A stretch of DNA of 32,000 nucleotides from Trichlorobacter lovleyi SZ (GCF_000020385.1 NC_010814.1:2220001-2252000); one strand, 5' to 3'. Positions 3,566 through 30,136 are shown, counted from the first letter of the stretch. Notes: generated by a model from the sequence alone, not told the origin. Numbers and translations: made by a program.

Positions 3566-4432
3566 CTACACCCCATGCACCAATGAAAGAAAGAAGTCTT
3601 CCAGATTTTTCCGGCGTGGTTCAACCAGGACTATTTCACGACCAGTTGCGACCTGTTCAGCAAGAAAACGGTCAAGCAACTCTTTAGGCACCTCTTCATC
3701 CAGCACTGCTCCATCAGCATCCTTTAAACGGACCTGATAGCCAACTATGCCACGTGACATAATGGCATCCACCCGGTCCACCAGCTTTAGTTCACCATGC
3801 AGCAGAATACCTACACGGTCACAGACCTTTTCAACATCATCAGTAATATGGGTGCTGAAAAAAACAGATTTCCCGCGTTTTTTCAAATCAACGATAATTT
3901 CCTTCACCAGTGCCCGACCAATCGGGTCCAGACCACTCATCGGCTCATCCAGAATATAGACATCAGGATCATGAATCAGCACCTGCGCCAAACCGACCCG
4001 CTGCACCATCCCCTTGCTGTAGCCACGGATAGGACGCTTACGCGCTTCCCACAACTCAAGTTGTTTCAATACCTCTGCAGAGCGGCGGGTTAACAGTGCA
4101 TCAGGCATTTTGAATGTTTTACCCACAAACTGCAGATACTCTTCCGCTGTCAGATAATCATAAAAAGCCGGGTTCTCAGGCAAGTAACCGACATTACGAC
4201 GGGAAGCCTCTGACCCGATCGCCTCTCCCATAATTGAAGCAGTGCCGGATGTTGGCCGGATCAACCCCATCAAACATTTGATGGTCGTACTTTTACCGGC
4301 ACCGTTGGGGCCTAGAAAGCCGAACACCTCACCCTGCTCTATTGAAAGTGTCAGTCCCTTCAACGCCTCAACGGTCTGGCGTTTTTTACCTTTAAATGAT
4401 TTACTCAGACCCTGCATATCAAGAGCGTACAT
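3566..4432 (-). CDS. ABC transporter ATP-binding protein (ABC-2/DrrA-type exporter ATPase)
   Basis: It has Walker A GPNGAGKST, the signature YSKGMVQRV, Walker B ILDEPMSGLD and an H-loop (STH). A strong SD (GAGGTGA) lies 4-5 nt upstream of the ATG at 4432. Confidence 0.9.
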   Translation of the reverse strand: MYALDMQGLSKSFKGKKRQTVEALKGLTLSIEQGEVFGFLGPNGAGKSTTIKCLMGLIRPTSGTASIMGEAIGSEASRRNVGYLPENPAFYDYLTAEEYLQFVGKTFKMPDALLTRRSAEVLKQLELWEARKRPIRGYSKGMVQRVGLAQVLIHDPDVYILDEPMSGLDPIGRALVKEIIVDLKKRGKSVFFSTHITDDVEKVCDRVGILLHGELKLVDRVDAIMSRGIVGYQVRLKDADGAVLDEEVPKELLDRFLAEQVATGREIVLVEPRRKNLEDFFLSLVHGV

Positions 4433-4441
4433 CAGCTCACC

Positions 4442-5308
4442 TCACTTATTTTTTGTTGCAAAAGCAAACTTGCTGGTTGTTGTCACCTTGCCGGAGGGTT
4501 CAAGATAGAATCTTCCACCGTAGGGATCTGCCGGTGCCGGAGCAAGCAAACCGAGCTGCACCAATTGTTCAACAGAGACGGGTAAACCGCCATGCTCTGC
4601 CATAAATCTATCCCTTGCAATTTCAATTCGCTTGACTTCATAGAAGGCTGCCAACCGGATCTGGTAGTCTTTTTTTATAGATTGGTTTCTCTCACCTTTT
4701 TCAATAACTGTCAGATAGGCAATAGCCAAATCTGTCTGCCCTGATTCTTGCATATAACGTCCGGCAAGACTCTTGTGCAGTTCTTGACCACTTAAATCAG
4801 CGGCTCTCTTGTAATATGCAGCAGCTTTTGGATAGTCCTTTAAAAAATAGGCACTATTAAAGCCGGCAAAAAACGGTAGATACCAGTCCCAAGTACGGTA
4901 TTTCATACCGTAGTCAAGCAAGTCGTTAGCAACCTTAAACTGTTTGGCATCCCACGTTAGAAAACCTTGTGCGAAATAGTAGGCATCCATATTGTAGGGG
5001 TCTAGTTGCACAGCACCATGCAGCAATCGAGACATTCCCTGCAAATCAAGCGGCTCGCTGATCACCTTATCCTCTTGAGCCTTGCCTATAATGCCACCAA
5101 AGTACATCAACACCTTCATCACCAAAGATGCGCCTACCAACTCCTTTTGATCAGCACTCAGCGGCTTCAGAAGCTTCACACTGGGGACATATCCAAGCTT
5201 CTCCTCAATCGGCTTATTGGCCATATACGAGGAAAAAGGAACTATCAGCAGTCCATAGCAAAGCAGACCGCTAACCAGCAAAGCAACCGGAATACGCAGG
5301 CTGTTCAC
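4442..5308 (-). CDS. Membrane-anchored TPR-like protein encoded inside the ABC-2 exporter operon
   Basis: The 288-aa ORF has an N-terminal TM segment (IPVALLVSGLLCYGLLIV) followed by TPR-like helical repeats (DPYNMDAYYFAQGF..., YPKAAAYYKRAADL..., DLAIAYL). Its GTG start overlaps the permease stop (GTGA), and a 9-nt gap separates it from the ATPase gene. Confidence 0.6.
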   Translation of the reverse strand: MNSLRIPVALLVSGLLCYGLLIVPFSSYMANKPIEEKLGYVPSVKLLKPLSADQKELVGASLVMKVLMYFGGIIGKAQEDKVISEPLDLQGMSRLLHGAVQLDPYNMDAYYFAQGFLTWDAKQFKVANDLLDYGMKYRTWDWYLPFFAGFNSAYFLKDYPKAAAYYKRAADLSGQELHKSLAGRYMQESGQTDLAIAYLTVIEKGERNQSIKKDYQIRLAAFYEVKRIEIARDRFMAEHGGLPVSVEQLVQLGLLAPAPADPYGGRFYLEPSGKVTTTSKFAFATKNK

Positions 5309-6099
5309 TTCATTTCCCTCCGGTTAAACAGCAGAGCTGCACTACCCAGCAAAATGGCAGTGTAGCCAGCAAAGTAGCCCACAGTCATCGCAAGTCCTTG
5401 TGGATTGGGGGCAATACTGTATATCGCGTTCACCTTCAGATCAAATCCAGCCAGATTAGGCAACAGGTAATAAACGACTGACGCGACAGCCTTTAAAAAC
5501 GGTGAAACCGCCTGCACCGATGCCGTAGAGTGTACAAATTCATAGACTTGTTGAGTAATGCTACTGGCCAAAAATGTGCAGATGGAGCCAAAAACTGGCA
5601 AAAAGAAGGAAGTACTAACCGTGGAAAGCAGCATTGCCACTGCTACCAGCAGGATATACTTAAAGGTGATGAACAGTAAGGTCAGTAGCAGATAATTCCA
5701 GACAACGGGACGAGCAGGAGGATACATTCCTGACGCCACCTTGATCACCAGTAACGAAACCGCTCCAAGTACGGCTGAAGTCAGTATTAGGAACAGGGCC
5801 AAGCCCAAAAAACGGCCTAGCAGATAAGAACTACGGCTAAGAGGCAGGCTAAGTACGCTAAAGGTATAGCGTCGTTCCATATCCCTCCAGAGCGAGGTTG
5901 CCCCCAAAAAGACTGAAAGAAGCAACAGAATAAACGAGATCAGTGAAAGCGAGAGTGTAATAGAAAGCTCGGTTACCTGACGCATAGAAAGCGAGGCAGC
6001 TGAAGGAATAAAAAGAAACAAAACAGCCAAGGCCATGATCCCTTGGAATACTCGATCTCGAAAGATACCTATAAGCGTAATCTTCATAATGTTGGTCAT
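5305..6099 (-). CDS. ABC-2 family transporter permease
   Basis: The product is a polytopic hydrophobic protein with about 6 TM segments. It is translationally coupled to the downstream TPR gene and the ATPase. I prefer the ATG at 6099 (GGAG 8-11 nt upstream) over the TTG at 6117 used by the track. Confidence 0.75.
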   Translation of the reverse strand: MTNIMKITLIGIFRDRVFQGIMALAVLFLFIPSAASLSMRQVTELSITLSLSLISFILLLLSVFLGATSLWRDMERRYTFSVLSLPLSRSSYLLGRFLGLALFLILTSAVLGAVSLLVIKVASGMYPPARPVVWNYLLLTLLFITFKYILLVAVAMLLSTVSTSFFLPVFGSICTFLASSITQQVYEFVHSTASVQAVSPFLKAVASVVYYLLPNLAGFDLKVNAIYSIAPNPQGLAMTVGYFAGYTAILLGSAALLFNRREMK

Positions 6100-6184
6100 A
6101 AAAGCTACTCCGTTCAACTACAATATTATAGATTGATCCTGCCCACCATCGACACCGAAGTCCCTCAAGCAAAATTTAGATCTA

Positions 6185-7060
6185 TCAAAGCAAACCTTGT
6201 ATTAAGTCAGCAAGCTCTTGATTTGTTTTACGAATATTTTCCAAGTACTGCTGCGCCTTCTTGACCTTGCCTGCACTACCGAGCAACCTAATCAGGCCGC
6301 AATGCGCCTGAAATGACTCATTATCAAATTTTAAAGCACTTCTATACATAGTAAAAGCTTTAGCAAACTTATCATTTTTTTGGTAGAAATCTGCCATCAT
6401 CAGATACTCATCAACCCCAGCCATATCACGCTCTAGCAGCTGTTCACAGAATCTGATCGCTTCTACAAACTGCCCCAATTCCCAACATTCAGAGGCTATT
6501 TCAGCAAGATACAAACTTTCATCAACATGTTCTCGCTTTATAAGTCTCGCTTGAATATCACTTACAGCGTTAACATAATGCCTAATGGCAAATTTCTTTT
6601 CTTCTTCGCTTTTCTCTTGCCAATAAGGGTCCAAAAGCAAATTACAATCAAAATTAAAATCAACAGTCAGGGGATAGTGATCTAATCGGTTAATAAGTCT
6701 CCATTTTTTACTAAAATAATAAAAAGTTGCCTCTGATATAGCCCTGAGGTGAGTGGGATCCTGCCACGCCCTGATACTGGAATAATAAGGGGCGATAATT
6801 TCAGCTTTCGCGCCTACTTTCATAATGCGATACAGTTCATTAATAAAGGCGATGAGATCAGGAGTATGCTCAATGTAATGAGAGCAGAAAACCTCATCAA
6901 CACTATTATCTTCAAAAGGCCATGGGAATTGCCATAAATCAACGACAATATCCGCCCCCTCCCAAAGATCTACACCAACAAAACCGGGACGTTTGTTTTT
7001 CCCACACGCGATATCTAGCTTCAGCTCTCTTTGAATATCATCTCCAGCTATTTGCTGCAT
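6185..7060 (-). CDS. Class I SAM-dependent methyltransferase fused to a C-terminal TPR-like domain
   Basis: The N-terminal half has motif I LDIACG, post-I VGVD, and VDEVFCSHYIEH (Methyltransf_11/23-like). The C-terminal roughly 100 aa are TPR-like helices (GQFVEAIRFCEQLL..., DKFAKAFTMYRSALKFD..., GKVKKAQQYLENI). The start overlaps the stop of the upstream gene by 13 nt. Confidence 0.7.
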   Translation of the reverse strand: MQQIAGDDIQRELKLDIACGKNKRPGFVGVDLWEGADIVVDLWQFPWPFEDNSVDEVFCSHYIEHTPDLIAFINELYRIMKVGAKAEIIAPYYSSIRAWQDPTHLRAISEATFYYFSKKWRLINRLDHYPLTVDFNFDCNLLLDPYWQEKSEEEKKFAIRHYVNAVSDIQARLIKREHVDESLYLAEIASECWELGQFVEAIRFCEQLLERDMAGVDEYLMMADFYQKNDKFAKAFTMYRSALKFDNESFQAHCGLIRLLGSAGKVKKAQQYLENIRKTNQELADLIQGLL

Positions 7061-10000
7061 TTGTAGTCACTCCATATTTTATCAAGTGCGCTTTCAAAAG
7101 ATCGGGCAAAAAGTTCACCATCAAACAACGAAGAGTTGATAAAACATTCACGGATAGACTGTCGAAAATTTGGACGCTGGCAAATATTCTCAGCTAACAT
7201 AACCGCCCGATCAATATAATCGTTTCTATCTCTTGCAACTAGCTCTGATAATCCGATCCGATTTAAAATTGATGCTCCAACTCTTCCCGCATGTCGATCA
7301 CCTGTAAAAGTGACCACAGGGACCCCCATCCACAAGGCCTCACAGGTTGTAGTTGTACCATTATAGGGAAAGGTATCTAATGCTATATCGACATGCTGGT
7401 ACATACAAAGGTGTTCCTTGATATCGGGGGCTGCTGGTAACAAAATAATCCTATCCGATGTAATTCCAAACGCTGCAAACCCATCATAAAACTTTTGTTG
7501 TATAGATTGATCGGAGAAAAACCAGTTTTTCAACATTATGACTGAACCTTCAACTCTGTTAAGAATTGTAGCCCATGTTTCTATTACATAAGGAGACGTT
7601 TTAGAAATATTGTTAAATGAACCAAATGTGACACATCCTTTTCTGATACAAGGAAAGTCAGTAACATTTGGTGCCTCTTTCGGCGGTTCGTAACATAAGA
7701 AACCTTCAGAAAGTCTAACTAGCTTTTCAGTATACCATCTATCATCACCATCTACAGGGTCTGCTATATCGTCAGTAAATCTATAATCAATCTCTGTTAG
7801 GCCTGTAGTATTGGGGTAGCCCAACCATGAAACTTGTATAGGACTCGGCTTTGCAGCAAACACCTCCAACCTGTTTCTAGAAGTGTGACCCGCCAGATCA
7901 AATAAAATATGCACATGATTTTCTTTAATAACTTCAAACAACTCCTGATGAACAATGCCAAACACCTCATGCCATTCATCTGCATATGATTGCAAACGAT
8001 TTGTTACTTGGTCATTTTTAATTACATCAGAAAAACATACAATTTCGTATTTTTTCTTATCCAGATGACTAAATAACGGACCAAGAAAATAGGCCACAGA
8101 GTGTTTTCTAAAATCAGGCGAAACAAATCCAATTCTTAACTTCTCAGGTACGACAGCATCCTGGACTAACAAATCATTGTAATCAAGCGCACTTGCTTGC
8201 CACCCTATATACTGTTTCCAAGCAACACTTCTCGTATAGTATTCTTCCTGCGTGACTTTTGGAGTATAATTCATAAAAAGCAATTGGTTTGATCTAATAT
8301 GAAGCCTCTCGGGCTGTAATGCATAGGCCTTGTCATATGATTTACTTGCCTCAGACATGTTACCGCAAACCATTTGCAAACTTGCCTTATTATTCCATGC
8401 CTCAGCGTAACGATCTTCAATCTCAAGGGCCTTATCAAAACACTCAAATGCTTTGTTCAGCTGTCCAAGTGAGGAATAAACGAGCCCCAAGCTGTTGTGT
8501 GCAATAAAATTATTTTTGTCTAAAGCAATCGCCTTCTTAAACAATTTTTGGCTCGAGAGAGGATTATTTCGTTCCCTAGTGAAGTTCCCTTGTTGAGTAC
8601 ATAACTGTGCATACTCTATAGCTTGGTGAGTATTTTGTTCACCGCCCCCCCATAACTGAAACAGTAACTCTTCAACATCATGTGCGAACCTTCTCCCATC
8701 GCAAAGCGGAGAGTTAAGTAAAGCTGGACGTAATGAGTCTCGAAAAAACTGCAGTTTTTCAAGGTCAAAAGACAACTTTACTGCTGTTTCAATATATTCA
8801 TCTTTATTTGTTGTAACAAGTTCATAAAGCCCTAGTAAATCAAGAAATGTTTTGGTTTGCCTGCTTATTGGGGTAGTACCAGCCAGTGTAATTATTGGGA
8901 CCCCCATCCACAAAGCATTCAAACTTGTCATGCCTCCTGTAAAGGGAAATGTATCCAGCATGATATCAATATCTCCGTGTTCCATAAGCATGAGATATGG
9001 AGATGAAAATGTCCGAAACTCAATCCTACGGGGAGAAACTCCATACGTCGAAAATAGCTCTCTAAATCTTCGCCGAACAGACACATCCTTAAAGGTACTA
9101 AATTTTAAAACTAAACGGGACTTCGGCACCCTCTTCATAATATCAGACCATACTTCAACTACATTTTCTGAAATTTTCAAAGGATTGTTGAAACTACCAA
9201 AAGTTATGAATTCTGAATCAAGACAAGGAGATTCAACTACTTCTGGGCTAGGTGATGGTTGCACAAAACAAAAGCGGCTATACGGCAGACATACAACCCG
9301 TTCAACGAACCACTGTTCATCTTGCGGCTGTATAAAATCATTATCTGCAATTATATAGTCAATCGAATCCAGACCAGTTGTATGCCCGTATCCCATCCAT
9401 GTCATTTGAATAGTCGCTGGCCGAAAACAAAAAATCTGTATCCTGCTCTTAACGGTATGACCAGCAAGATCGATTAATATATCAATTTTATCGTTTCTAA
9501 TTATTTCAGCAGCGTCCTGATCACTTAAGGCCGTAATATCTCGCCATATAGCTGCTTTTTCTTGATAGCTATCGGTTATCTGGTCATGCCTACTACCGTT
9601 GCTATAACAAAACAATGAAAGTCGTTCAGAATTATAATTCTGGAACAGAGCAAGCAATAAAATACCAACCGGATGATGACAAAAATCTGGAGAGACAAAA
9701 CCAACTCGCAACAGCTTTTTCTTCTTACGCGGAAGACAGTCACTCCAAGGTTCAGCGTCAAGCTCTAAAACATCGGCTACTTGCCTGGACAGTTCAAAAA
9801 CATCACTTTGTTTGGCAGTAGCATCATAAAACAGAAACGACATCAAGGTTGTCAGCATCTCATAGTTAAAAGGAGATATCTCAACGCCTCTTTTAAGTGT
9901 CTGGACAGCCTTGGAAATATCACCCATTGCACCTTGGGCAAGCGCAAGATTTCCAATCGCCCCTAAATGATCGGGCGCTAGTTCTAGCGCACGCTCACAA

Positions 10001-12192
10001 CAAACTACTGAATCATGTATACGATCAAGAATCCTGTTAACAATACCCAGATTAACTAATGCGTGAGTATTTTCAGGACAAAGTTCAAGCACCTTAAGAA
10101 GATGCTTCCTGGCAAGCTGATGCCTAGCCACAGATAAGTACAGAATTCCAAGTTGCAGCCTAGACTCAAAACGTTTTGGATAACGTCGAACTCCAGCACG
10201 ATACATGCTTATGGCTTTTTCCAGCTGACCAAGTTTTTTATAAGCACCAGCCAACAGATTAATTGCTTCATAATGAGCCGGCTCTCGCTTAAGTAACTCT
10301 GTGAGCAATCTGATTGTATACTCTGGGTCTTCATCATTCAGAGCAACAGCCCCTGAAGAATAGAGTTCTTCAGGACTAAAATGTTCCAAAGATGCAGGAG
10401 AATCGCAATTTGTTTGCCAGTTTTCTAAAATTTCCTTATACAGAGTCTCCATGTTTTTAGCAAAAGCAAGGCCATCACATAAAGGGGAGCTTGCCATTTC
10501 TCTTCTCAAGTTCCTCCTCATTAATGACAATCTGTTTGGATCTAAAGCAAGATTTTGAGCAATTTGAACATAATCGTCTAAGGTAGACGCCACCAATTCA
10601 TGATGATCTATGGCATACAAAAATGCTTTGCTTTGACGACTAATAGGGGTTCCCATCTCAAGAGTAACAACCGGAACTCCCATCCAGAGTGCTTCACAAG
10701 TACTAGCGCCACCATTGTACGGAAAAGGGTCCAGAGCTATATCTATTTCTCCGTATTCCTGAAGCATTTCATAGTGAGACGATAATTTTTTAAAAATAAT
10801 CCTGTTAGACGAAATACCATGTATTTTAAAACGACGTATAAAATCATCTACAACGACATCATCACTGAAAGATTTGGATTTGAGAAGCAGCTTTGAATGA
10901 GATACGGCATGTAAAACTCTAGACCACGCATCAACAACCTCTGCCGTTAGTTTGTGGATTGAGTTAAAGGAGCCAAAGGTAATATATCCATTTTTCAAAC
11001 ATGGAGCGGCAGTTGTTGGAGGAGTGTAGGGCATCGGTTCATAACAGAACCTGCACACAGGCAATCGAACAATCTGCTCCGCAAAAAACAGATCATCCTT
11101 CAAAGGGATTGTAATCGGATCGCTAATAAGATAGTCAATGGATTCCAAGCCTGTGGTATTAAAATATCCCAACCAGGTGACTTGCACAGGAGCCGGTTTT
11201 TGAGCAAAGAGTCCTAACCTGTTGAACCCAGTATGACCGGCAAGATCCACCAGAATATCAATACAATCACAACGGATCAACTTTGCAGCCTGAGTATCTG
11301 ATAAGTTATATATATCCCTCATGGCTGCGACATTGCCGGCCAATGTCTCGGTAACCTCGTCTCTCAAAGGAAATGAGTTGTAGAGATATATTTCAAACGT
11401 GTCTTTGTCATGATTTAGAAGGAGTGGTTTTAAATAGTAAACAACCGGATGCAGCTTAAAATCACCTGAGACATAGCCAACTCTAATTTTACGTTCCCTG
11501 CATACAGAATTTAAATATCCGCGATTAGATCTATTTTGATTATCGTAATTTTTTTGTGCCAGTTGCACTGTTTTTTGATAAATATCCTGCTGGCTGAATT
11601 CCGGTAGTAGGTTCATTGTAAATAAAACACTAGATATCAGAGCATCTGTTGCCCGTAATTTCACCCCGTGACTAAAATAAGTGTATGCTTCTTCTGGCTT
11701 ACCAAATGAAAGCATAAGACTACCCAAATTTTGATAATTTAACGCAATGTCAGGGCAAAGCTGCAATGCTTTGGTGCAAAACTCTTGTGCCTCTTCTGTC
11801 TCTCCCTTGGTAATCAACACTGACGCAAGTAATGCCATTGTTTTTGCATTTTCAGGTGCGAGTTTCAGCACTTGCCTATAAAGCTGCTCAGACTCTTCAA
11901 AGAGGAGCATTCCAGACAGAATAACACCCAGATTTTGCAAGGCATCCGCATAACCTGGCTTAAGTTTTATTGCCTCACGAATGAGCTGTTCGCCGACTTC
12001 AAATTCACCAGTCCTGTAGCGAAGCATTCCCATCGCATGCAGGATTCTTGGATTATCATGAAAAGCAACTGACAACTCTTCACAAATTTTTAAGGCATCA
12101 TGCAACTTGCCACTATCCGCAAGTCCATTAATTAGCTTAAACTGTTCATCTATAGATGTTTCACTGATCTTCGTTACATTTTTTAAGTTCAT
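7048..12192 (-). CDS. Giant protein with three tandem TPR + GT41 (O-GlcNAc transferase / SPINDLY-like) glycosyltransferase modules
   Basis: The 1714-aa ORF contains three colinear repeats. Each has TPR helices followed by R(V/I)G(Y/F)VS.DF..H.V ... DLAGHT...F...P.P(V/I)Q(V/M).W.GY..TTGL..IDY ... TFGSFN...K ... D.(F/P)PY/F.G..T...ALWMGVP(V/I)(V/I)T ... SPLCDG/SSLFDG. These closely parallel human OGT segments as I recall them (GYVSSDFGNHP; RPAPIQAMWLGYPGTSG; FNQLYK; GHTTGMDVLWAGTPMVT). Confidence 0.8.
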   Translation of the reverse strand: MNLKNVTKISETSIDEQFKLINGLADSGKLHDALKICEELSVAFHDNPRILHAMGMLRYRTGEFEVGEQLIREAIKLKPGYADALQNLGVILSGMLLFEESEQLYRQVLKLAPENAKTMALLASVLITKGETEEAQEFCTKALQLCPDIALNYQNLGSLMLSFGKPEEAYTYFSHGVKLRATDALISSVLFTMNLLPEFSQQDIYQKTVQLAQKNYDNQNRSNRGYLNSVCRERKIRVGYVSGDFKLHPVVYYLKPLLLNHDKDTFEIYLYNSFPLRDEVTETLAGNVAAMRDIYNLSDTQAAKLIRCDCIDILVDLAGHTGFNRLGLFAQKPAPVQVTWLGYFNTTGLESIDYLISDPITIPLKDDLFFAEQIVRLPVCRFCYEPMPYTPPTTAAPCLKNGYITFGSFNSIHKLTAEVVDAWSRVLHAVSHSKLLLKSKSFSDDVVVDDFIRRFKIHGISSNRIIFKKLSSHYEMLQEYGEIDIALDPFPYNGGASTCEALWMGVPVVTLEMGTPISRQSKAFLYAIDHHELVASTLDDYVQIAQNLALDPNRLSLMRRNLRREMASSPLCDGLAFAKNMETLYKEILENWQTNCDSPASLEHFSPEELYSSGAVALNDEDPEYTIRLLTELLKREPAHYEAINLLAGAYKKLGQLEKAISMYRAGVRRYPKRFESRLQLGILYLSVARHQLARKHLLKVLELCPENTHALVNLGIVNRILDRIHDSVVCCERALELAPDHLGAIGNLALAQGAMGDISKAVQTLKRGVEISPFNYEMLTTLMSFLFYDATAKQSDVFELSRQVADVLELDAEPWSDCLPRKKKKLLRVGFVSPDFCHHPVGILLLALFQNYNSERLSLFCYSNGSRHDQITDSYQEKAAIWRDITALSDQDAAEIIRNDKIDILIDLAGHTVKSRIQIFCFRPATIQMTWMGYGHTTGLDSIDYIIADNDFIQPQDEQWFVERVVCLPYSRFCFVQPSPSPEVVESPCLDSEFITFGSFNNPLKISENVVEVWSDIMKRVPKSRLVLKFSTFKDVSVRRRFRELFSTYGVSPRRIEFRTFSSPYLMLMEHGDIDIMLDTFPFTGGMTSLNALWMGVPIITLAGTTPISRQTKTFLDLLGLYELVTTNKDEYIETAVKLSFDLEKLQFFRDSLRPALLNSPLCDGRRFAHDVEELLFQLWGGGEQNTHQAIEYAQLCTQQGNFTRERNNPLSSQKLFKKAIALDKNNFIAHNSLGLVYSSLGQLNKAFECFDKALEIEDRYAEAWNNKASLQMVCGNMSEASKSYDKAYALQPERLHIRSNQLLFMNYTPKVTQEEYYTRSVAWKQYIGWQASALDYNDLLVQDAVVPEKLRIGFVSPDFRKHSVAYFLGPLFSHLDKKKYEIVCFSDVIKNDQVTNRLQSYADEWHEVFGIVHQELFEVIKENHVHILFDLAGHTSRNRLEVFAAKPSPIQVSWLGYPNTTGLTEIDYRFTDDIADPVDGDDRWYTEKLVRLSEGFLCYEPPKEAPNVTDFPCIRKGCVTFGSFNNISKTSPYVIETWATILNRVEGSVIMLKNWFFSDQSIQQKFYDGFAAFGITSDRIILLPAAPDIKEHLCMYQHVDIALDTFPYNGTTTTCEALWMGVPVVTFTGDRHAGRVGASILNRIGLSELVARDRNDYIDRAVMLAENICQRPNFRQSIRECFINSSLFDGELFARSFESALDKIWSDYKCSK

Positions 12193-14083
12193 GTTTCAAT
12201 AGCCCCAGATTTTTTTTGCCTTTGGGTGATTTCTCAGAAATAATCGTTACAGCCGCATCAAAATATTGTTTGGCCGCCTCACATTTATTTATCTGTGTTG
12301 AAGCAATTATGCCTGAATAAAAAAGATTTAGATCTTCAGACAGCCTGTAATGTTCAACAAGATATTCAAGTTCAAGACCTTTCAATACTACATCGTATTT
12401 TGTTCTTGCTGAAATCTGTTCATCCTGCATCTCTCTAATTAGTAAAACTGTAGCTTTTAAAGTAGAAACTAGATTTCTGGATTTACGAGCCAACGCCTTT
12501 TGATACAGACATAATGCCGTATTATACATCTTCTTTTCCCTTAACTTTGAAGCGATCATCACTTCCGCCTGTTCGTCAAAGTCAGGAGATGGCAGCAGGG
12601 TCGATGCATCAGAATATTCGTCCAGAGCTTCATCCGTAAACCCTTTTTCAACCAAAGCATGTATATAAATATTTCTCAATTTTCTTATTTTCTGATTTTG
12701 TGACACCGTATCCTGAAAGAGTGTCACATTGGACACCCAGGTTTGGTTACGGCTAAAGGTTATACAAGCAGCTATTAAGCAGATGGATGCTAAAAGCGCA
12801 TAAATATAACGTGACGGAAATGTTTTGATGTTTTGTATTTTTTCAATCCAGAGGCATAATCCAATTATAAAAAATGCAGTTGAAAGGTAAATATACCGCT
12901 CGGCATATGCTGTCCATGCAATAGTACCAAAAACAAAAGGCAAAGCAGGTAATAATAGACTTAAACCGAGCAATAAAAAAATAGATGCCAATGTACGCTT
13001 ATGCAATAAAAATGCAGTTAAGAGCAAAACAGCTATACCAATGAAGTCGTATAATGGATCTATTTCAAGTATAAAAAAATTTAATGGCAAGGGTATAAAA
13101 AACTTCTTTACATAAAAACCTAGTGCACCAATGAACATTGATAGTGTGTAGTTTTTATCAGCTAGCATCAGGATGATTGTTTGCGATATTTTATTGACGC
13201 TAGACAGAAAAACAACCTGGCGTATCAGAAAAAACAGACCAACTGCTACAGACATAAATATAATTAATAAAACAAATTTTTTCCAAAAAACTGCTGATAA
13301 AAAATTAATTCCATTTTTGTAATCAGTAGAAACTATATGTAGAAAATATAAAAGCACCAGAACTGCTACAGCCCAATAACATCCAGTGAACAATGCGACT
13401 AGAAACGAAATAGAATAGTAGCCAAGGTATAAACGCCAATCAAACAAGCGTGTTTCTTGTATAGCCCCATCAGAGCGCGTATATATTACCAGCAACGAAA
13501 CTCCAATCAGAAAGCCAAAAGCGGCTTCTTTTGCTAAAAGAGCAAAAAAAACCGCAATAATAGAGACTAGCAATGCAATCTTTGACTTCTTGTGTAAAAA
13601 ATATAGATACGACAATGTGCCCGCAAGAATAAACGTACCCATCATAACATCGGTTCTGCCAGACAACCAGTTCACTGATTCAGTGGTAATGGGATGCAGT
13701 GTAAAAAGAAGAGCTGAAAAAAGCGGCAAATAATATATATGCTGCCTGTTTACAAGATTAAGCGCAGTTCTGGTAATATAAAAAACTAAAATGCCGTTTA
13801 AAAGGTGTGCAACAACACTCTCAAAATGCATAATCTGATGTTGTAAAAACCATAGTTTTTTATCAAGCAGGTAGCTTAAGCCAATTAATGGCCGGTAGTA
13901 CCCTCCCCCCATATTCTGAGGCGAAAAAATATTACGTAGAGAACTGGTATCACTACCAAATACGCCAGCTAAAGCGCCCAGGTCATCAACAAGGCAAATT
14001 TCGCCAAACTGAGTTGGATAAAACACCAGTAGAACTAATGCACTAATCGCCATAATTTGAAACGTAACAGACAATTTTTGCAT
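12161..14083 (-). CDS. GT-C fold membrane glycosyltransferase (TMTC/PMT-like) with C-terminal TPR domain
   Basis: The 640-aa ORF has roughly 10 or more TM segments. An acidic DD motif follows TM1 (EICLVDDLGAL), then YYRPLIGLSYLLD and HPITTESVNWLSGRTDVMMG, a pattern typical of TMTC/PMT-family enzymes (D-D/E loop, YRPL, HP..TE.V.W...R.D). The last roughly 170 aa are TPR-like. The stop overlaps the next gene's start by 32 nt. Confidence 0.75.
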   Translation of the reverse strand: MQKLSVTFQIMAISALVLLVFYPTQFGEICLVDDLGALAGVFGSDTSSLRNIFSPQNMGGGYYRPLIGLSYLLDKKLWFLQHQIMHFESVVAHLLNGILVFYITRTALNLVNRQHIYYLPLFSALLFTLHPITTESVNWLSGRTDVMMGTFILAGTLSYLYFLHKKSKIALLVSIIAVFFALLAKEAAFGFLIGVSLLVIYTRSDGAIQETRLFDWRLYLGYYSISFLVALFTGCYWAVAVLVLLYFLHIVSTDYKNGINFLSAVFWKKFVLLIIFMSVAVGLFFLIRQVVFLSSVNKISQTIILMLADKNYTLSMFIGALGFYVKKFFIPLPLNFFILEIDPLYDFIGIAVLLLTAFLLHKRTLASIFLLLGLSLLLPALPFVFGTIAWTAYAERYIYLSTAFFIIGLCLWIEKIQNIKTFPSRYIYALLASICLIAACITFSRNQTWVSNVTLFQDTVSQNQKIRKLRNIYIHALVEKGFTDEALDEYSDASTLLPSPDFDEQAEVMIASKLREKKMYNTALCLYQKALARKSRNLVSTLKATVLLIREMQDEQISARTKYDVVLKGLELEYLVEHYRLSEDLNLFYSGIIASTQINKCEAAKQYFDAAVTIISEKSPKGKKNLGLLKHELKKCNEDQ

Positions 14084-14109
14084 ATTCGGCCTTGTTTGAG
14101 ATATTTGCT

Positions 14110-14150
14110 AAAAAAAAGGGTTGGCACAAAATAGCCAACCCTTTAAAAAA
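14110..14150 (-). terminator. Strong (bidirectional-looking) intrinsic terminator immediately after the PilA-C-like gene
   Basis: The minus strand reads UUUUUUUAAAGGGUUGGC-UAUUUUGU-GCCAACCCUUUUUUUU. The GC-rich core stem is 8 bp (GGGUUGGC/GCCAACCC) and can extend by A-U pairs, and a U8 tract follows. It sits 16 nt after the pilA-C stop and about 27 nt before the next ATG. Confidence 0.75.
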
Positions 14151-14165
14151 ACTATAACCTTGAAA

Positions 14166-14525
14166 CTACATAGAAGTCCAATCAGTTCCCGTAAAACTTG
14201 TATTTGTGGCAATTGCTGATGCAACAGACGTAGCATTTCCAGGGGTTGTTGTCTTAAAATAGAGCTTTGCATCACTCTGGTTACTTGCAATGGCCTTATC
14301 CCCCTGACCATGGGCAGCAGCAATACCGTATGCCGTACCAGCAAAACCGGTAGAAACACCTGAGTCAGATACATAGTAGGCGCTAACCTTGTTAGATGAA
14401 GAAAAACTACTACCTCCTACAGATGTAGCACCGGAAAGAGTAAGAGTTGCAGCATAAGAAGCAGAAGCTGCAACCATACTGAGAACAACCACAACAGCTA
14501 ATTTTAGCATATTTTTCTTTGCCAT
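14166..14525 (-). CDS. PilA-C-like secreted Ser/Thr/Gly-rich protein (second half of a split Geobacter-type pilin)
   Basis: The 119-aa ORF has a Sec signal peptide (MAKKNMLKLAVVVVLSMVAASASYA|AT). The mature part is about one third Ser+Thr by my count (31/94). An AAAGGAG SD lies 8 nt upstream, and the gene is 43 nt downstream of pilA-N with no terminator between them. Position and size match the PilA-C (GSU1497-type) partner of truncated geopilins. Confidence 0.75.
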   Translation of the reverse strand: MAKKNMLKLAVVVVLSMVAASASYAATLTLSGATSVGGSSFSSSNKVSAYYVSDSGVSTGFAGTAYGIAAAHGQGDKAIASNQSDAKLYFKTTTPGNATSVASAIATNTSFTGTDWTSM

Positions 14526-14568
14526 GATTTAATATCTCCTTTCTTGGAAAACTTAAATAAAAATGGAC

Positions 14569-14781
14569 TTAGGAACCAGGATATCCTTGACGATCTGCAA
14601 AAACAGACTCAAGAACGGTTTTCAGGTTACGCAAATCACTGGTTGCGTTTGAATTGTAACCCTTGATACGATAGGTTGTAAACTGGGGGATGGCCACGGC
14701 TGCCAGGATGCCGATGATCGCCACAACGATCAGCAGCTCGATGAGGGTGAAGCCTTTTCTGTTCCGAATCTTGTTTAGCAT
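14569..14781 (-). CDS. pilA: Truncated type IVa pilin PilA-N (geopilin)
   Basis: The sequence is MLNKIRNRKG|FTLIELLIVVAIIGILAAVAIPQF..., with a class III signal peptide, the G|F cleavage site and Glu5. The 60-aa mature protein has aromatics at F1, F24, Y27, Y32, F51 and Y57, the same positions as G. sulfurreducens PilA as I recall it. An AAAGGAG SD is present. Confidence 0.93.
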   Translation of the reverse strand: MLNKIRNRKGFTLIELLIVVAIIGILAAVAIPQFTTYRIKGYNSNATSDLRNLKTVLESVFADRQGYPGS

Positions 14782-14804
14782 AGATTCTTCTCCTTTCTGG
14801 TTGT

Positions 14805-14822
14805 CCTGCTGTATATAGCAGG
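14805..14822 (-). promoter_or_regulatory. Perfect 6-bp inverted repeat / 5'-UTR hairpin upstream of pilA-N
   Basis: CCTGCT-GTATAT-AGCAGG lies between the predicted sigma54 promoter and the SD. Its function is unknown; mRNA stability or an operator are possibilities. Confidence 0.3.
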
Positions 14823-14866
14823 TGTAAATTTAAACTGACTACTTAGTTGGAATCAGCTAAAGTTTA

Positions 14867-14882
14867 AGCAAAATACAAGCCA
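14867..14882 (-). promoter_or_regulatory. Sigma54 (RpoN) -24/-12 promoter for pilA-N
   Basis: The minus strand reads TGGCTT-GTATT-TTGCT against the consensus TGGCAC-N5-TTGCW. GG and GC have correct spacing and 9 of the 11 specified consensus positions match. It lies about 85 nt upstream of the pilA-N ATG. Geobacter pilA is known to be RpoN/PilR dependent. Confidence 0.6.
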
Positions 14883-14964
14883 ACATAAAAAAAGAACTAA
14901 CTATCAGTCTTCACGCAACTTTATCCATCCATATTGGAAAACAGTCTAGCATAGGCATGCTGTT

Positions 14965-14992
14965 TGTCAAGCCGCGCTGACATTTTTTGTCA
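14965..14992 (-). promoter_or_regulatory. Candidate enhancer-binding-protein site (TGTCA-N8-TGACA palindrome plus a third TGTCA half-site)
   Basis: The sequence is TGTCA(14965-69)-AGCCGCGC-TGACA(14978-82)-TTTTT-TGTCA(14988-92). It lies about 85-110 bp upstream of the -24/-12 element, the usual UAS distance for NtrC-family activators. Confidence 0.3.
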
Positions 14993-15179
14993 ACGACGTT
15001 CACTTCAACCATATAAGCTGATTGAAGTGGTTGCGGTTTTTGAGACATGAGTATTATCAACGAACCAATCCCCTTAAAAGGAGAGGTCCCATGCAGCACC
15101 GCACCCGTTTCTACCCACTCAATTCGACAAAGAACCTTTTGTTCTTTAAGCCTTACTCTACCTACGGCACCAAAAAACT

Positions 15180-27628: not shown

Positions 27629-30136
27629 ATGCGACTACTTCCGGCAAAGCTTGTACTGATTTCCCTTGTAACGGCATCTATCGGTCTGTTTCAGCAGGCC
27701 AGCGATGCAGCCGCCACAGCCCAACTCATGGTCACGGTCAACGGCCAAGGTGCTGTCAGCGGCACTCCAGCCACCATTGCATGCTCGACCGGTTCCTGCA
27801 GCTACTCCTTCGCAACCGGAACCTCAATCACCCTGGTTGCGGTCCCTGCTGCCGGTTCTTCGTTTGCCGGATGGCTGGGAGGTTCATGCACAGGGGCAAA
27901 CAGCTGTTCCTTGACGCTCACAGGTGATACCACCATGAGTGCAACTTTTGTTGAAGGACCGGCAAAGGTACGGATTCAAGGAACACCATCGCGTTATTAT
28001 CCAACACTTCAGACGGCGCTTGACCATGCCGCTAACGGCGAGGTTCTACGCGCTGCAGGCGGCGTGTTCCACGAGGATATCCTGCTGACAAACCCGGCAC
28101 TGCTTAACTTGCAGGGCGGGTATAACAGCAGTTTTGAAAACCGGGACAGTGTCTCACTGCTGGATGGCACCCTGACCATTGCCGGCGGCAGTCTTACGGT
28201 GAGCGGTTTGACCATTGCATCCGGCATATCCGCAACCCAGCCAATGGCCAATGCCGGCTCCGACCGTTTAAGTTTCCCCAGCTGGCCGGTCCAGCTGGAT
28301 GGCACCGGCAGCAGGGATGCAGGCAGCAATCCGCTCTCCTACAGCTGGGATCTGGCAGTCAAGCCGCAAGGCAGTTCAGCAGTCCTCTCCGGAGCAACCA
28401 CGGCAAACCCAGCCTTTACACCTGACCTCCCTGGCCTTTACGTGGCCCGGCTGATTGTCAACAACGGCCAACTGGACAGCACGGCAGACACGGCAACAGT
28501 CACGGTGCAACAGGTTACTGCGCCCTACTCCGCCAGCTCCCTCTTCAGCCAGCCGGAAGCAGCAGCAGTAACGGACTCGCCAAATACATTCTATACAGCT
28601 GAGCAGCAGGCAGCTGTGCTGCAAGCTGCCATAAAGACCTTTAATACTGCTTATACTGGCGGTGTCTACACCTTTGATCTGGTCAATCAGGATACCGACC
28701 CCAATGACACCTGGGAACCTGAAGTCAGCGCCCATTTCCTGGCCGATGACTACCCTGATGACGGCGTAACAGCCAATGCCACACTGCGGCTGCGCGGCAA
28801 CAGTTCACGCCTTGCCGTCCAGAAATCATACCGGGTAAAACTCTCAAAAGATGCCAGCAGCGTCCAGCGCTACTGGCGTAATGAGACGACCCTGCAACTC
28901 AACAAACATCCCTGGGATTTGGCCAGGGTCCGCAACAAGCTTGCCTTTGACCTGTTCCGTGACATTCCGCATCTTCCCAGCCTGCGGACCCAGTTCATGC
29001 AGATCACTATCGATGACGAAAACAACAGCAACGATGGCGATTACGGGCTTTTTACCCATGTGGAAAAGGTGGGTAAGGAATATCTCTCAAACCGGGGACT
29101 GGCAACGGACGGCAACATCTACAAGGCCAACAATTTTACATTTCGCATGGAGGATGGTCTGACGCTCGGCAGCGATGGCAAAAAACCGTTAGACAAGGCT
29201 GCCTTCGAGCTGATTCTGGAGATTGAAAACGTGAATACCGATCACCGGCCGCTTATTGCCATGATCAACGCCGTCAATAACGACAGCAGCAGCATCAATG
29301 ACACGATCGCAACCTATTTTGACCGTAACAACTATATCACCTGGCTGGCAACCAATATCCTGGCCGGCAACCGTGACACCATCACCCAGAATTTTGAACT
29401 ATACCAACCGGCTGCAGGGAGCAGATTCTATTTCATACCCTGGGATTATGACGGTGCATTCGGCTTTGAAAACCAGCCGGATATTCAGGCTGCTGGCAAT
29501 CTGTATGCCCCCTGGCAGATGGGGATCGGCAACTGGTGGGGAGTCCCGCTTCATAACCGTTTTCTCATGGATGCCACCAACAGGGCTGATCTTACCCGGA
29601 CCGTGCTGGATATCTACAGCACCTACCTGACGCCGGAAAGAATCAAGGCGTTACTGGACAGCTACAGGCCGCTGGTTCAACCGCTTATCACCAGGAGCCC
29701 TGATCTTGATCATCTGCCCACCGTTGCAGGGGCAGATTCAGAGGAACAGTGGGCACATGAGTATGCCCGCCTTGTGACGGTGACAAAAATCAACCTTGAT
29801 CGTTATCTGGCGTCATTGAATCAGCCAATGCCGTTTTGGCAGAGTGCAACCGTGGAGGGATCAACTCTGGTGCTGGCCTGGGATCCTGCCGTGGATTTAC
29901 AAGGCGGGGCTGTCACCTATGACATTCAGATTGCAAGTGACCCTGCGTTCAGTACCGTTATCCATAGCACCTCAACCTATTCGGACACCAGTCTGACCAT
30001 GGCCAAACCAGCTGCCGGAACCTACTATCTGCGGGTGATTGCCAGAAATGCGGCAGGGCTGACGACCACCGGGTTTGATCGCCATGATACTGAAGGAACA
30101 ACCTATTGGGGGGTTTTACAGTTCACGGTATCCTGA
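27629..30136 (+). CDS. Secreted multidomain CotH-family (atypical kinase fold) protein with InlB-B-repeat-like, PKD-like and FN3-like domains
   Basis: It has a signal peptide (MRLLPAKLVLISLVTASIGLFQQASDAAA). A Cys-containing 'bacterial repeat' follows (VTVNGQGAVSGTPATIACSTGSCSYSF...FAGWLGGSCTG), then a PKD-like segment (ANAGSD...LDGTGSRD...LSYSWDL). The CotH core is LRLRGNSSRLAVQKSYRVKL...LQLNKHPWDLARVRNKLAFDLF...FYFIPWDYDGAFG, and the C-terminus is an FN3-like beta domain. Confidence 0.8.
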   Translation: MRLLPAKLVLISLVTASIGLFQQASDAAATAQLMVTVNGQGAVSGTPATIACSTGSCSYSFATGTSITLVAVPAAGSSFAGWLGGSCTGANSCSLTLTGDTTMSATFVEGPAKVRIQGTPSRYYPTLQTALDHAANGEVLRAAGGVFHEDILLTNPALLNLQGGYNSSFENRDSVSLLDGTLTIAGGSLTVSGLTIASGISATQPMANAGSDRLSFPSWPVQLDGTGSRDAGSNPLSYSWDLAVKPQGSSAVLSGATTANPAFTPDLPGLYVARLIVNNGQLDSTADTATVTVQQVTAPYSASSLFSQPEAAAVTDSPNTFYTAEQQAAVLQAAIKTFNTAYTGGVYTFDLVNQDTDPNDTWEPEVSAHFLADDYPDDGVTANATLRLRGNSSRLAVQKSYRVKLSKDASSVQRYWRNETTLQLNKHPWDLARVRNKLAFDLFRDIPHLPSLRTQFMQITIDDENNSNDGDYGLFTHVEKVGKEYLSNRGLATDGNIYKANNFTFRMEDGLTLGSDGKKPLDKAAFELILEIENVNTDHRPLIAMINAVNNDSSSINDTIATYFDRNNYITWLATNILAGNRDTITQNFELYQPAAGSRFYFIPWDYDGAFGFENQPDIQAAGNLYAPWQMGIGNWWGVPLHNRFLMDATNRADLTRTVLDIYSTYLTPERIKALLDSYRPLVQPLITRSPDLDHLPTVAGADSEEQWAHEYARLVTVTKINLDRYLASLNQPMPFWQSATVEGSTLVLAWDPAVDLQGGAVTYDIQIASDPAFSTVIHSTSTYSDTSLTMAKPAAGTYYLRVIARNAAGLTTTGFDRHDTEGTTYWGVLQFTVS

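Follow-up and report, generated by a model that had tools for sequence, protein, structure and literature searches.

A TMTC-related GT-C protein encoded beside the split pilin genes of Trichlorobacter lovleyi SZ: a candidate pilin O-glycosyltransferase

In Pseudomonas aeruginosa Pa5196/PA7, the gene directly after pilA encodes TfpW, a GT-C pilin D-arabinofuranosyltransferase of 646 amino acids (aa). TfpW is required for glycosylation of the pilin with D-arabinofuranose (D-Araf), and this glycosylation matters for the stability, assembly, and surface properties of the pilin. Type IV pilins are also glycosylated in the periplasm by TfpO/PilO, whose gene likewise lies next after pilA, and by PglL; these, however, are Wzy_C-type O-oligosaccharyltransferases, another family, and they transfer pre-assembled undecaprenyl-pyrophosphate-linked glycans. 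In metazoans, cadherins and protocadherins are O-mannosylated by TMTC1-4, membrane enzymes of CAZy family GT105. Here, we describe a gene whose product resembles both TfpW and the TMTCs. It lies in a 32,000-nucleotide (nt) stretch of the Trichlorobacter lovleyi SZ genome (GCF_000020385.1 NC_010814.1:2220001-2252000), hereafter the window, and all coordinates count from the first letter of that stretch. An earlier note, made from the sequence, had described the product as a TMTC/PMT-like GT-C protein with a soluble TPR tail, in the position of a "pilin glycosylase". The gene and the two pilin genes before it are as follows.

12161..14083, minus strand: putative GT-C glycosyltransferase, TMTC-like, with a C-terminal TPR-like domain (640-aa open reading frame (ORF), ATG start)
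14166..14525, minus strand: pilA-C-like gene for a secreted protein of 119 aa with a signal peptide; candidate acceptor
14569..14781, minus strand: pilA-N, encoding a short type IV pilin (70-aa prepilin; N_methyl, 7e-11); candidate alternative acceptor

The pilA-N prepilin carries an N-terminal methylation motif and matches the Myxococcus-type PilA model of NCBIfam (1.6e-16), and Ser and Thr together make up 33% of the predicted mature part of the pilA-C product. As the earlier note had it, the GT-C gene is the first after this pair, with 82 nt between the end of pilA-C and the GT-C start. It is proposed, with moderate confidence, that the gene encodes a TfpW-like, TMTC-related periplasmic O-glycosyltransferase of the PilA-N/PilA-C pilin. 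The fold of the protein, its homology to TMTC, its conserved catalytic motifs, its predicted topology, and the conserved linkage of its gene to pilin genes are all supported by the analysis.

The comparison with the TMTCs used an alignment of TMTC1-4 membrane domains, with structure-aligned segments of ArnT, STT3, PglB, and Pmt1, taken from the supplement of Eisenhaber et al. 2021 (PMC7801869). A hidden Markov model (HMM) of the membrane domain of the T. lovleyi protein and its relatives scored 51-72 bits on all twelve animal TMTCs in hmmsearch, but 0 bits or less on the ArnT, Pmt1, PglB, and STT3 segments (ArnT, -0.3; yeast Pmt1, -13). When the family was aligned with the TMTC alignment by hhalign, the match extended over 396 columns with a probability of 99.8% and an E value of 6e-27 in global mode (99.1% and 6e-19 in local mode). 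The best-scoring block runs from YRP through HPxxTE(A/S)V..GRxD to KE, for which the family consensus reads LLFALHPIxTESVNWISGRTD in its central part, and a PxxP...ERxxY block before the last helices is aligned as well. Judged by sequence, then, the protein is a true homologue of TMTC, although not a typical member. It is best described as representing a 13-helix bacterial branch that lacks DUF1736 and is tied to a split PilA-N/PilA-C pilin and an ABC-2 (ATP-binding cassette) transporter.

Full-length TMTC-like proteins have been noted before in poorly characterised prokaryotes, for example AMJ42_05695 of Deltaproteobacteria bacterium DG_8, but no genomic context, substrate, function, or pilin linkage was given for them [Eisenhaber et al. 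2021 (PMC7801869)]. Like the protein described here, AMJ42_05695 has a GT-C domain followed by TPR repeats and comes from the "Deltaproteobacteria"; the present family very likely belongs to this set of prokaryotic TMTC homologues.

Other placements were tried and rejected. Membership among the O-antigen ligases (Wzy_C) finds no Pfam or NCBIfam match in the GT-C protein and no Wzy_C match in 53 relatives, and no profile match places the protein with O-antigen polymerases or in an unrelated family. Membership in PMT (GT39) was rejected because there is no PMT or MIR match and because of the score on yeast Pmt1, and membership in ArnT (GT83) was rejected on its profile score. Thus, of the label "TMTC/PMT-like", the TMTC half holds and the PMT half is too loose. 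ArnT and PMT do share with the protein a GT-C-A type fold and an acidic motif in loop 1, and they use the kind of polyprenyl-phosphate monosaccharide donor that is proposed here; however, the acceptor of ArnT is lipid A, and the fungal and animal PMTs carry a MIR domain, of which none is found here. NCBIfam gave no TfpW-type match for the protein.

Structural comparison points to the same fold. An AlphaFold model built on an alignment of 53 relatives had a predicted local distance difference test (pLDDT) score of 86.9 and a predicted template modelling (pTM) score of 0.87. Foldseek searches with this full-length model were swamped by TPR proteins, and the membrane domain was re-predicted alone (pLDDT 85.9, pTM 0.90). 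For that model, the high-probability matches were GT-C enzymes only (PglB, STT3, ArnT, ALG12, Pmt4, EmbB, and AftA), the remainder being low-probability transporters. It should be noted that the scores are weak, with a best E value of 0.014 and, for PglB, a probability of 1.00 and a TMq of 0.40. In addition, Pfam PMT_2 was matched by 7 of the 53 relatives (best 3e-6) and by 3 of 10 shorter relatives, and GT-C_AftD by 3 of the 53. These results bear out the GT-C fold assigned in the earlier note. A phmmer search of the PDB with the protein alone returned nothing. The family profile matched only TPR proteins there, so the PDB copy that was searched seems to lack the TMTC membrane domain.

Relatives of the protein number more than 312; a search with only the membrane domain yields 270 cluster representatives at E<=1e-30, rising to about 20,000 at E<=1e-3. 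Conservation was read from the alignment of the 53 relatives, which are 32-64% identical to the T. lovleyi protein, and was compared with the TMTC motifs M1-M7 as defined in PMC7801869: DD, SHKSYRP, RxD, KE(T/Q)xxT, DW, PxxP, and ERxxY. That paper connects the seven motifs with the binding of metal, phosphate, sugar, and lipid. The domains and motifs of the protein lie as follows.

12755..14083, minus strand: membrane (catalytic) domain, residues 1-443, with 13 predicted transmembrane (TM) helices (hydropathy and positive-inside count)
13982..13987, minus strand: DD motif, D33 D34, in the first periplasmic loop just after TM1; corresponds to TMTC M1, the GT-C catalytic acid, and is invariant in the 53 sequences
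13889..13900, minus strand: YYRP, Y62-P65, in loop 1; corresponds to the YRP core of TMTC M2 (SHKSYRP)
13649..13696, minus strand: HPITTESVNWLSGRTD, H130-D145, in periplasmic loop 2; includes TMTC M3 (RxD)
13526..13531, minus strand: K185 E186, in loop 3; corresponds to the KE of TMTC M4 (proposed phosphate and metal ligands)
12887..12949, minus strand: P379-x-x-P382 ... E395 R396 Y397 I Y399; corresponds to TMTC M6 (PxxP) and M7 (ERxxY)
12164..12754, minus strand: TPR-like helical repeat domain, residues 444-640 (family profiles and model), predicted to be periplasmic

Translation confirmed the three motifs that the earlier note had quoted for a polytopic protein, in the forms DD (of VDD), YYRP (of YYRPL), and HPITTESVNWLSGRTD. 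All three are invariant in the 53 relatives (in HPITTESVNWLSGRTD, the invariant residues are H, P, E, S, W, S, G, R, T, and D), and because they are kept at 32-64% identity, they are not chance strings. Six of the seven TMTC motifs have invariant counterparts: M1, M3, M6, and M7, together with M2 and M4, which are reduced to YRP and KE, respectively, and the motifs follow one another in the same order as in TMTC1-4. The exception is M5 (DW), which has no confident counterpart in the family. In the TMTCs this motif belongs to the DUF1736 loop before TM8; that loop is unrecognisable here and stayed unaligned in the profile comparison, and PF08409 (DUF1736) matched neither the protein nor any of 63 relatives scanned. 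Loop 4 of the family has invariant residues of its own, Y324-x6-P331-L-P333 ... P343.

This pattern of conservation bears on the idea that the protein is a non-catalytic pilin chaperone or assembly factor, in which a GT-C-like scaffold carries a TPR domain that holds PilA-C or PilA-N. A TPR domain is a protein-binding module, and in Geobacter sulfurreducens both GSU1497 (PilA-C) and xapD, a gene of the cluster that follows the pilin genes, have been reported to be necessary for PilA accumulation. However, the positions proposed in TMTC and ArnT for catalysis and for metal and phosphate binding are invariant in the 53 relatives. Such conservation is not expected of a dead enzyme, and a chaperone role is consequently considered very improbable.

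With respect to topology, the 13 hydrophobic helices found by hydropathy agree with the helices of the AlphaFold model. Across the family, the density of Lys and Arg is 0.21 in the loops predicted to be cytoplasmic vs 0.08 in those predicted to be periplasmic. Given the odd number of helices and the positive-inside rule, the C-terminal domain is predicted to be periplasmic; the N-terminus would then be cytoplasmic, and all of the conserved motifs, like the TPR-like domain, would face the periplasm. This is the side to which the earlier note had assigned the TPR domain, and the TMTCs, too, carry a non-cytoplasmic TPR domain after their last helix.

The assignment of the tail as TPR clearly rests on family-level evidence rather than on the T. 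lovleyi sequence alone. Pfam gave no hit of any kind in the protein, TPR included, even at E<=10, and the one NCBIfam match, to PgaA-TPR at residues 440-538, was weak. On the other hand, Pfam TPR models were matched by 35 of the 53 relatives, the family profile matches consensus TPR proteins in the PDB at 3.5e-15, and the model contains ten paired helices over residues 452-639, that is, about five TPR-like hairpins. The soluble TPR tail of the earlier note is consequently upheld by relatives, profile, and model, but not by Pfam in the protein itself. TMTCs have more TPR hairpins than this.

The count of 13 helices is itself a departure from the known enzymes, since TMTC1-4 are described with 11 and TfpW is predicted to have as many. 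The difference from the TMTCs lies in an inserted hairpin at residues ~206-270, which adds two helices between loop 3 and loop 4. Many relatives of ~575-590 aa (P0137-P0257) match the protein in two stretches that skip these residues, and they are expected to have 11 helices, arranged as reported for TMTC and TfpW. Thus, the 13-helix form looks like a derived insertion variant.

TfpW, which was compared by description rather than by sequence, is like the T. lovleyi protein in length (646 vs 640 aa), in being polytopic, with a GT-C domain whose first periplasmic loop carries an essential DD(x) motif, and in the position of its gene immediately downstream of the major pilin gene. It also has a C-terminal periplasmic TPR domain. 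The earlier note had cited TfpW as a precedent for a GT-C enzyme encoded after pilA; that precedent stands, and the likeness had been understated. The TfpW motif YX6PFX7P of periplasmic loop 4 is matched in part, in that Y324-x6-P331 fits its first half while the spacing of the last Pro differs. Beyond the number of helices, there are two further differences: the pilin is split into two genes here, and TfpW depends on a D-Araf precursor cluster of the DprE1/DprE2 type, whereas no DprE1/DprE2 or DPPR synthase domains were found among the window ORFs scanned.

To assess linkage to pilin genes, two family peptides, and no pilin, served as the query in a scan that took one genome per species and yielded 80 loci. 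In half of these (40/80), the GT-C gene directly follows pilA-N and a gap that just fits an ORF the size of pilA-C. In another 20, only a trio of ABC transporter genes, and in 4, GT41 genes, lie between the pilin genes and the GT-C gene. In total, the GT-C gene is linked to pilin genes in 64 of the 80 loci, and the "pilin glycosylase" position noted in T. lovleyi is conserved to that extent; in 7 of the others the upstream DNA is too short to judge. The loci span Geobacterales, Desulfuromonadales, Desulfobulbales, and Nitrospirota. Five loci (L011, L039, L055, L063, and L078) from records of metagenome-assembled genomes hold Geobacter-type pilA-N/pilA-C/GT-C clusters under the labels Pedobacter, Shewanella, Chitinophagaceae, Pacearchaeota, or Paludibacter; these implausible labels are probably binning errors.

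The ORF that follows pilA-N in these loci is almost always secreted and ~105-130 aa long, with mostly 18-35% Ser/Thr. Among 58 distinct relatives of PilA-C from a wide range of taxa, the position of S44 (window numbering), which lies in the motif F-x-x-S-x-K-V, is always Ser or Thr (55 Ser and 3 Thr); H72, G75, V47, and a C-terminal W-T-S-M are also nearly invariant. S44 could be a site of modification or a structural contact with PilA-N. Secretion, the richness in Ser/Thr, and the one Ser/Thr kept in 58/58 relatives make PilA-C a plausible acceptor.

Taken together, these results suggest how the protein might work, and it is from them that we infer catalytic activity, a donor, an O-linkage to protein, and the identity of an acceptor. 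In the proposed mechanism, the protein would be an active inner-membrane enzyme of the TMTC lineage whose catalytic loops and TPR-like domain both face the periplasm. On that side of the membrane, as the analogy with TMTC, ArnT, and TfpW suggests, the sugar would come from a donor linked to polyprenyl phosphate; because the organism is bacterial, this donor cannot be dolichyl-phosphate-mannose. D33/D34 would activate the acceptor, and the binding site for the metal and the lipid phosphate would consist of K185/E186 and E395/R396/Y399. The acceptor would be a periplasmic protein docked on the TPR domain, with the sugar going to Ser/Thr. Where the TMTCs act on cadherins, the candidate here is the heterodimeric pilin encoded just upstream, PilA-C being the first choice and PilA-N the second. 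The modification would precede assembly into the pilus, and the role would match that of TfpW in Pseudomonas. As far as computation reaches, the interpretation given in the earlier note is supported; its conjectural part is that the acceptor would be PilA-C, as opposed to PilA-N, another protein, or a glycan, and that the transfer would be O-linked.

The acceptor might also be broader than the pilin. A general periplasmic protein O-glycosyltransferase would have many substrates (extracellular cytochromes, lipoproteins, and minor pilins), with the pilin at most one of them; as a precedent, PglL of Neisseria was initially regarded as specific for pilin. A TPR domain can serve many clients, some genomes have several paralogues of the GT-C gene, some of them away from pilin genes, and the ~20,000 cluster representatives found at the looser threshold make the membrane domain part of a large and diverse superfamily. 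Furthermore, OmcE filaments of G. sulfurreducens show densities that have been interpreted as glycosylation; the OmcE-linked glycosylation clusters, however, have been described with GT2, GT4, and GT39 enzymes and at a different locus. The tight adjacency to pilA-N/pilA-C across phyla, in the 64 loci counted above, is also what one would sooner expect of a dedicated enzyme such as TfpO or TfpW, and a general enzyme is judged unlikely.

The main alternative to a pilin glycosyltransferase arises from the genes that accompany the GT-C gene, above all the following trio.

3566..6117, minus strand: ABC-2 transporter trio, consisting of a permease (5305-6117), an unknown protein (4442-5308), and an ATPase (3566-4432)

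This trio accompanies the GT-C gene and pilA-N/pilA-C in 50 of the 80 loci. Along the complete Pelobacter propionicus genome, pilR is followed by pilA-N, pilA-C, the GT-C gene, genes for two membrane proteins, and one for an ABC ATPase (trio at 10777-13363 of locus L085). In G. sulfurreducens, pilA-N/pilA-C are GSU1496-1497; next, from GSU1498 on, comes the xap cluster with xapD (GSU1501), which encodes an ABC ATPase. Counting genes, and thus by gene order only, the counterpart of the GT-C gene in G. sulfurreducens is probably xapA (GSU1498); a protein search that started from a Geomonas relative had no G. sulfurreducens protein among its best 120 matches. By the same reasoning, the trio is probably equivalent to XapB-D of G. 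sulfurreducens and to PilG/H/I of Myxococcus, where the PilGHI ABC system is placed inside the pilus gene cluster. This suggests that the exporter of the "xap exopolysaccharide" is a pilus-associated system.

It could accordingly be argued that the GT-C protein acts on a glycan or lipid, as the periplasmic step in making a surface polysaccharide whose pathway depends on an ABC transporter, namely the "Xap" exopolysaccharide of Geobacter. The enzyme would add side-chain sugars, or extend or attach the polymer, like ArnT, GtrC-type enzymes, or Emb, and the pilin linkage would reflect co-regulation of pili and matrix. The frequent presence of the trio fits this view, as does the gene order, which leads to xapA; the operon that begins with this gene has been reported as necessary for roughly half of exopolysaccharide production. 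Acceptors other than proteins are common among GT-C enzymes, with ArnT, Emb, and AftA among the fold matches, and the window cluster also contains multi-domain GT41 transferases and a methyltransferase. Several observations are not easily accommodated, however. The nearest characterised relatives in sequence (TMTC) and in architecture (TfpW) have both been described as enzymes that act on proteins. The trio ATPase is of the DrrA/GldA type and has no match to the model of Wzt-type O-antigen exporters. The core set is pilin, GT-C gene, and ABC trio, and most loci, that of P. propionicus for instance, lack polymer-building transferases. In addition, PilA could not be detected in an xapD mutant of G. 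sulfurreducens, a loss that an exopolysaccharide-only role does not predict, and the similar placement of PilGHI in Myxococcus is within a pilus gene cluster. A role in polysaccharide synthesis is considered somewhat unlikely.

Both the loss of PilA in the xapD mutant and the placement of PilGHI are consistent with glycosylation of the pilin. On a bolder reading, the split PilA-N/PilA-C pili of Geobacter and related bacteria would be glycoproteins; the TMTC-type enzyme (probably XapA in G. sulfurreducens) would glycosylate PilA-C in the periplasm, possibly at the conserved Ser, the ABC-2 transporter (XapB-D, PilGHI-like) would supply or flip the lipid-linked donor, and the "xap" operon would be a pilin glycosylation module. 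This reading is possible but, taken as a whole, doubtful. If true, it would explain why xapD mutants lose PilA, and the cadherin O-mannosyltransferases of animals would gain a bacterial relative with a defined protein substrate.

Several points weigh against a pilin glycosyltransferase and should be set beside the evidence above. In 9 of the 80 loci, there is no pilin gene nearby even though the upstream DNA extends for at least 4 kb, and several genomes hold extra GT-C copies away from pilin genes. The DUF1736 loop, which carries a proposed metal ligand in the TMTCs, is not conserved in sequence. Among the annotated parts of the window, there is no gene for a polyprenyl-phosphate sugar synthase or a flippase. 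The equivalent region of G. sulfurreducens has been described as an exopolysaccharide operon. The literature consulted, two cryo-electron microscopy papers on PilA-N/C filaments aside, gave no direct evidence that PilA-N or PilA-C is glycosylated, and the one pilin modification found there for Geobacter is glycerophosphate on Tyr32 of PilA, which is not expected from a GT-C enzyme. Finally, a strong terminator-like hairpin follows pilA-C.

14115..14144, minus strand: terminator-like hairpin, an 11-bp stem followed by a T run, within the 82-nt gap between pilA-C and the GT-C gene

Because this hairpin sits between them, co-transcription of the GT-C gene with the pilin genes is not assured, and its expression may be uncoupled from theirs.

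The proposal matters for several reasons. There is dispute over what PilA-N/PilA-C filaments are made of and what they do. A glycosyltransferase that is dedicated to them and conserved beside Geobacter-type pilin genes predicts a modification that would change the surface chemistry, stability, and adhesion of the filament. If the GT-C gene is the equivalent of xapA, the biofilm and electrode phenotypes that have been ascribed to an "anchoring polysaccharide", along with the unexplained absence of PilA from xapD mutants, may have to be reinterpreted. Although prokaryotic homologues of TMTC were noted earlier, no substrate has ever been assigned to them; with its small and tractable candidate acceptor, a bacterial member would serve as an experimental model, one that could show how TPR-bearing GT-C enzymes choose folded protein substrates. 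A bacterial member of the TMTC type would also suggest an evolutionary origin for the animal TMTC enzymes.

Downstream of the GT-C gene, and before the ABC-2 trio, the cluster contains two more genes with TPR repeats.

7048..12192, minus strand: three tandem TPR plus GT41 modules (O-GlcNAc-transferase/NGT-like) in a cytoplasmic protein of 1714 aa (Glyco_transf_41, 3e-155, six stretches)
6185..7060, minus strand: partial class-I methyltransferase domain fused to TPR repeats, 291 aa; shares 13 nt with the end of the GT41 gene

The start of the GT41 gene overlaps the GT-C stop by 32 nt, and its product has no signal peptide. Multi-module GT41 genes are found near the GT-C gene in 23 of the 80 related loci. 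Candidate roles for the 1714-aa protein are either cytoplasmic protein glycosylation or the building of a lipid-linked glycan. Homologues of the methyltransferase-TPR protein occur in the closest related loci (L002-L004).

The genes for PilA-N, PilA-C, the GT-C protein, the GT41 protein, and the methyltransferase-TPR protein form, with the ABC-2 trio, a run in the same direction on the minus strand. From ~6200 to 15000 of the window, the G+C content is 36-42%, vs ~52% in the flanks. This low-GC block covers exactly the methyltransferase-TPR, GT41, GT-C, pilA-C, and pilA-N genes; the adjoining ABC trio has 42-53% G+C. Because all of them fall within the block, the pilin and glycosyltransferase genes look like one compositionally distinct cassette, and the composition suggests a surface-structure cassette that is horizontally exchanged or fast-evolving.

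Upstream of the pilin genes, a match to a sigma-54-type -24/-12 promoter, TGGCTTGTATTTTGCT, lies at 14867-14882 on the minus strand, ~85 nt before the pilA-N start. The pattern is no commoner in the window than expected by chance (2 found vs 1.45 expected), although the copy at pilA-N is well placed. The regulatory genes pilR/pilS are absent beside the pilin genes in the window, where an SBP_bac_5 protein and a TPR protein are encoded upstream instead; at the P. propionicus locus, by contrast, pilR adjoins the pilin genes. Farther away, at 27629-30136 on the plus strand and unrelated to the GT-C gene, the window encodes an 835-aa protein with a CotH kinase domain, a PKD domain, and an InlB-B-repeat-like domain.

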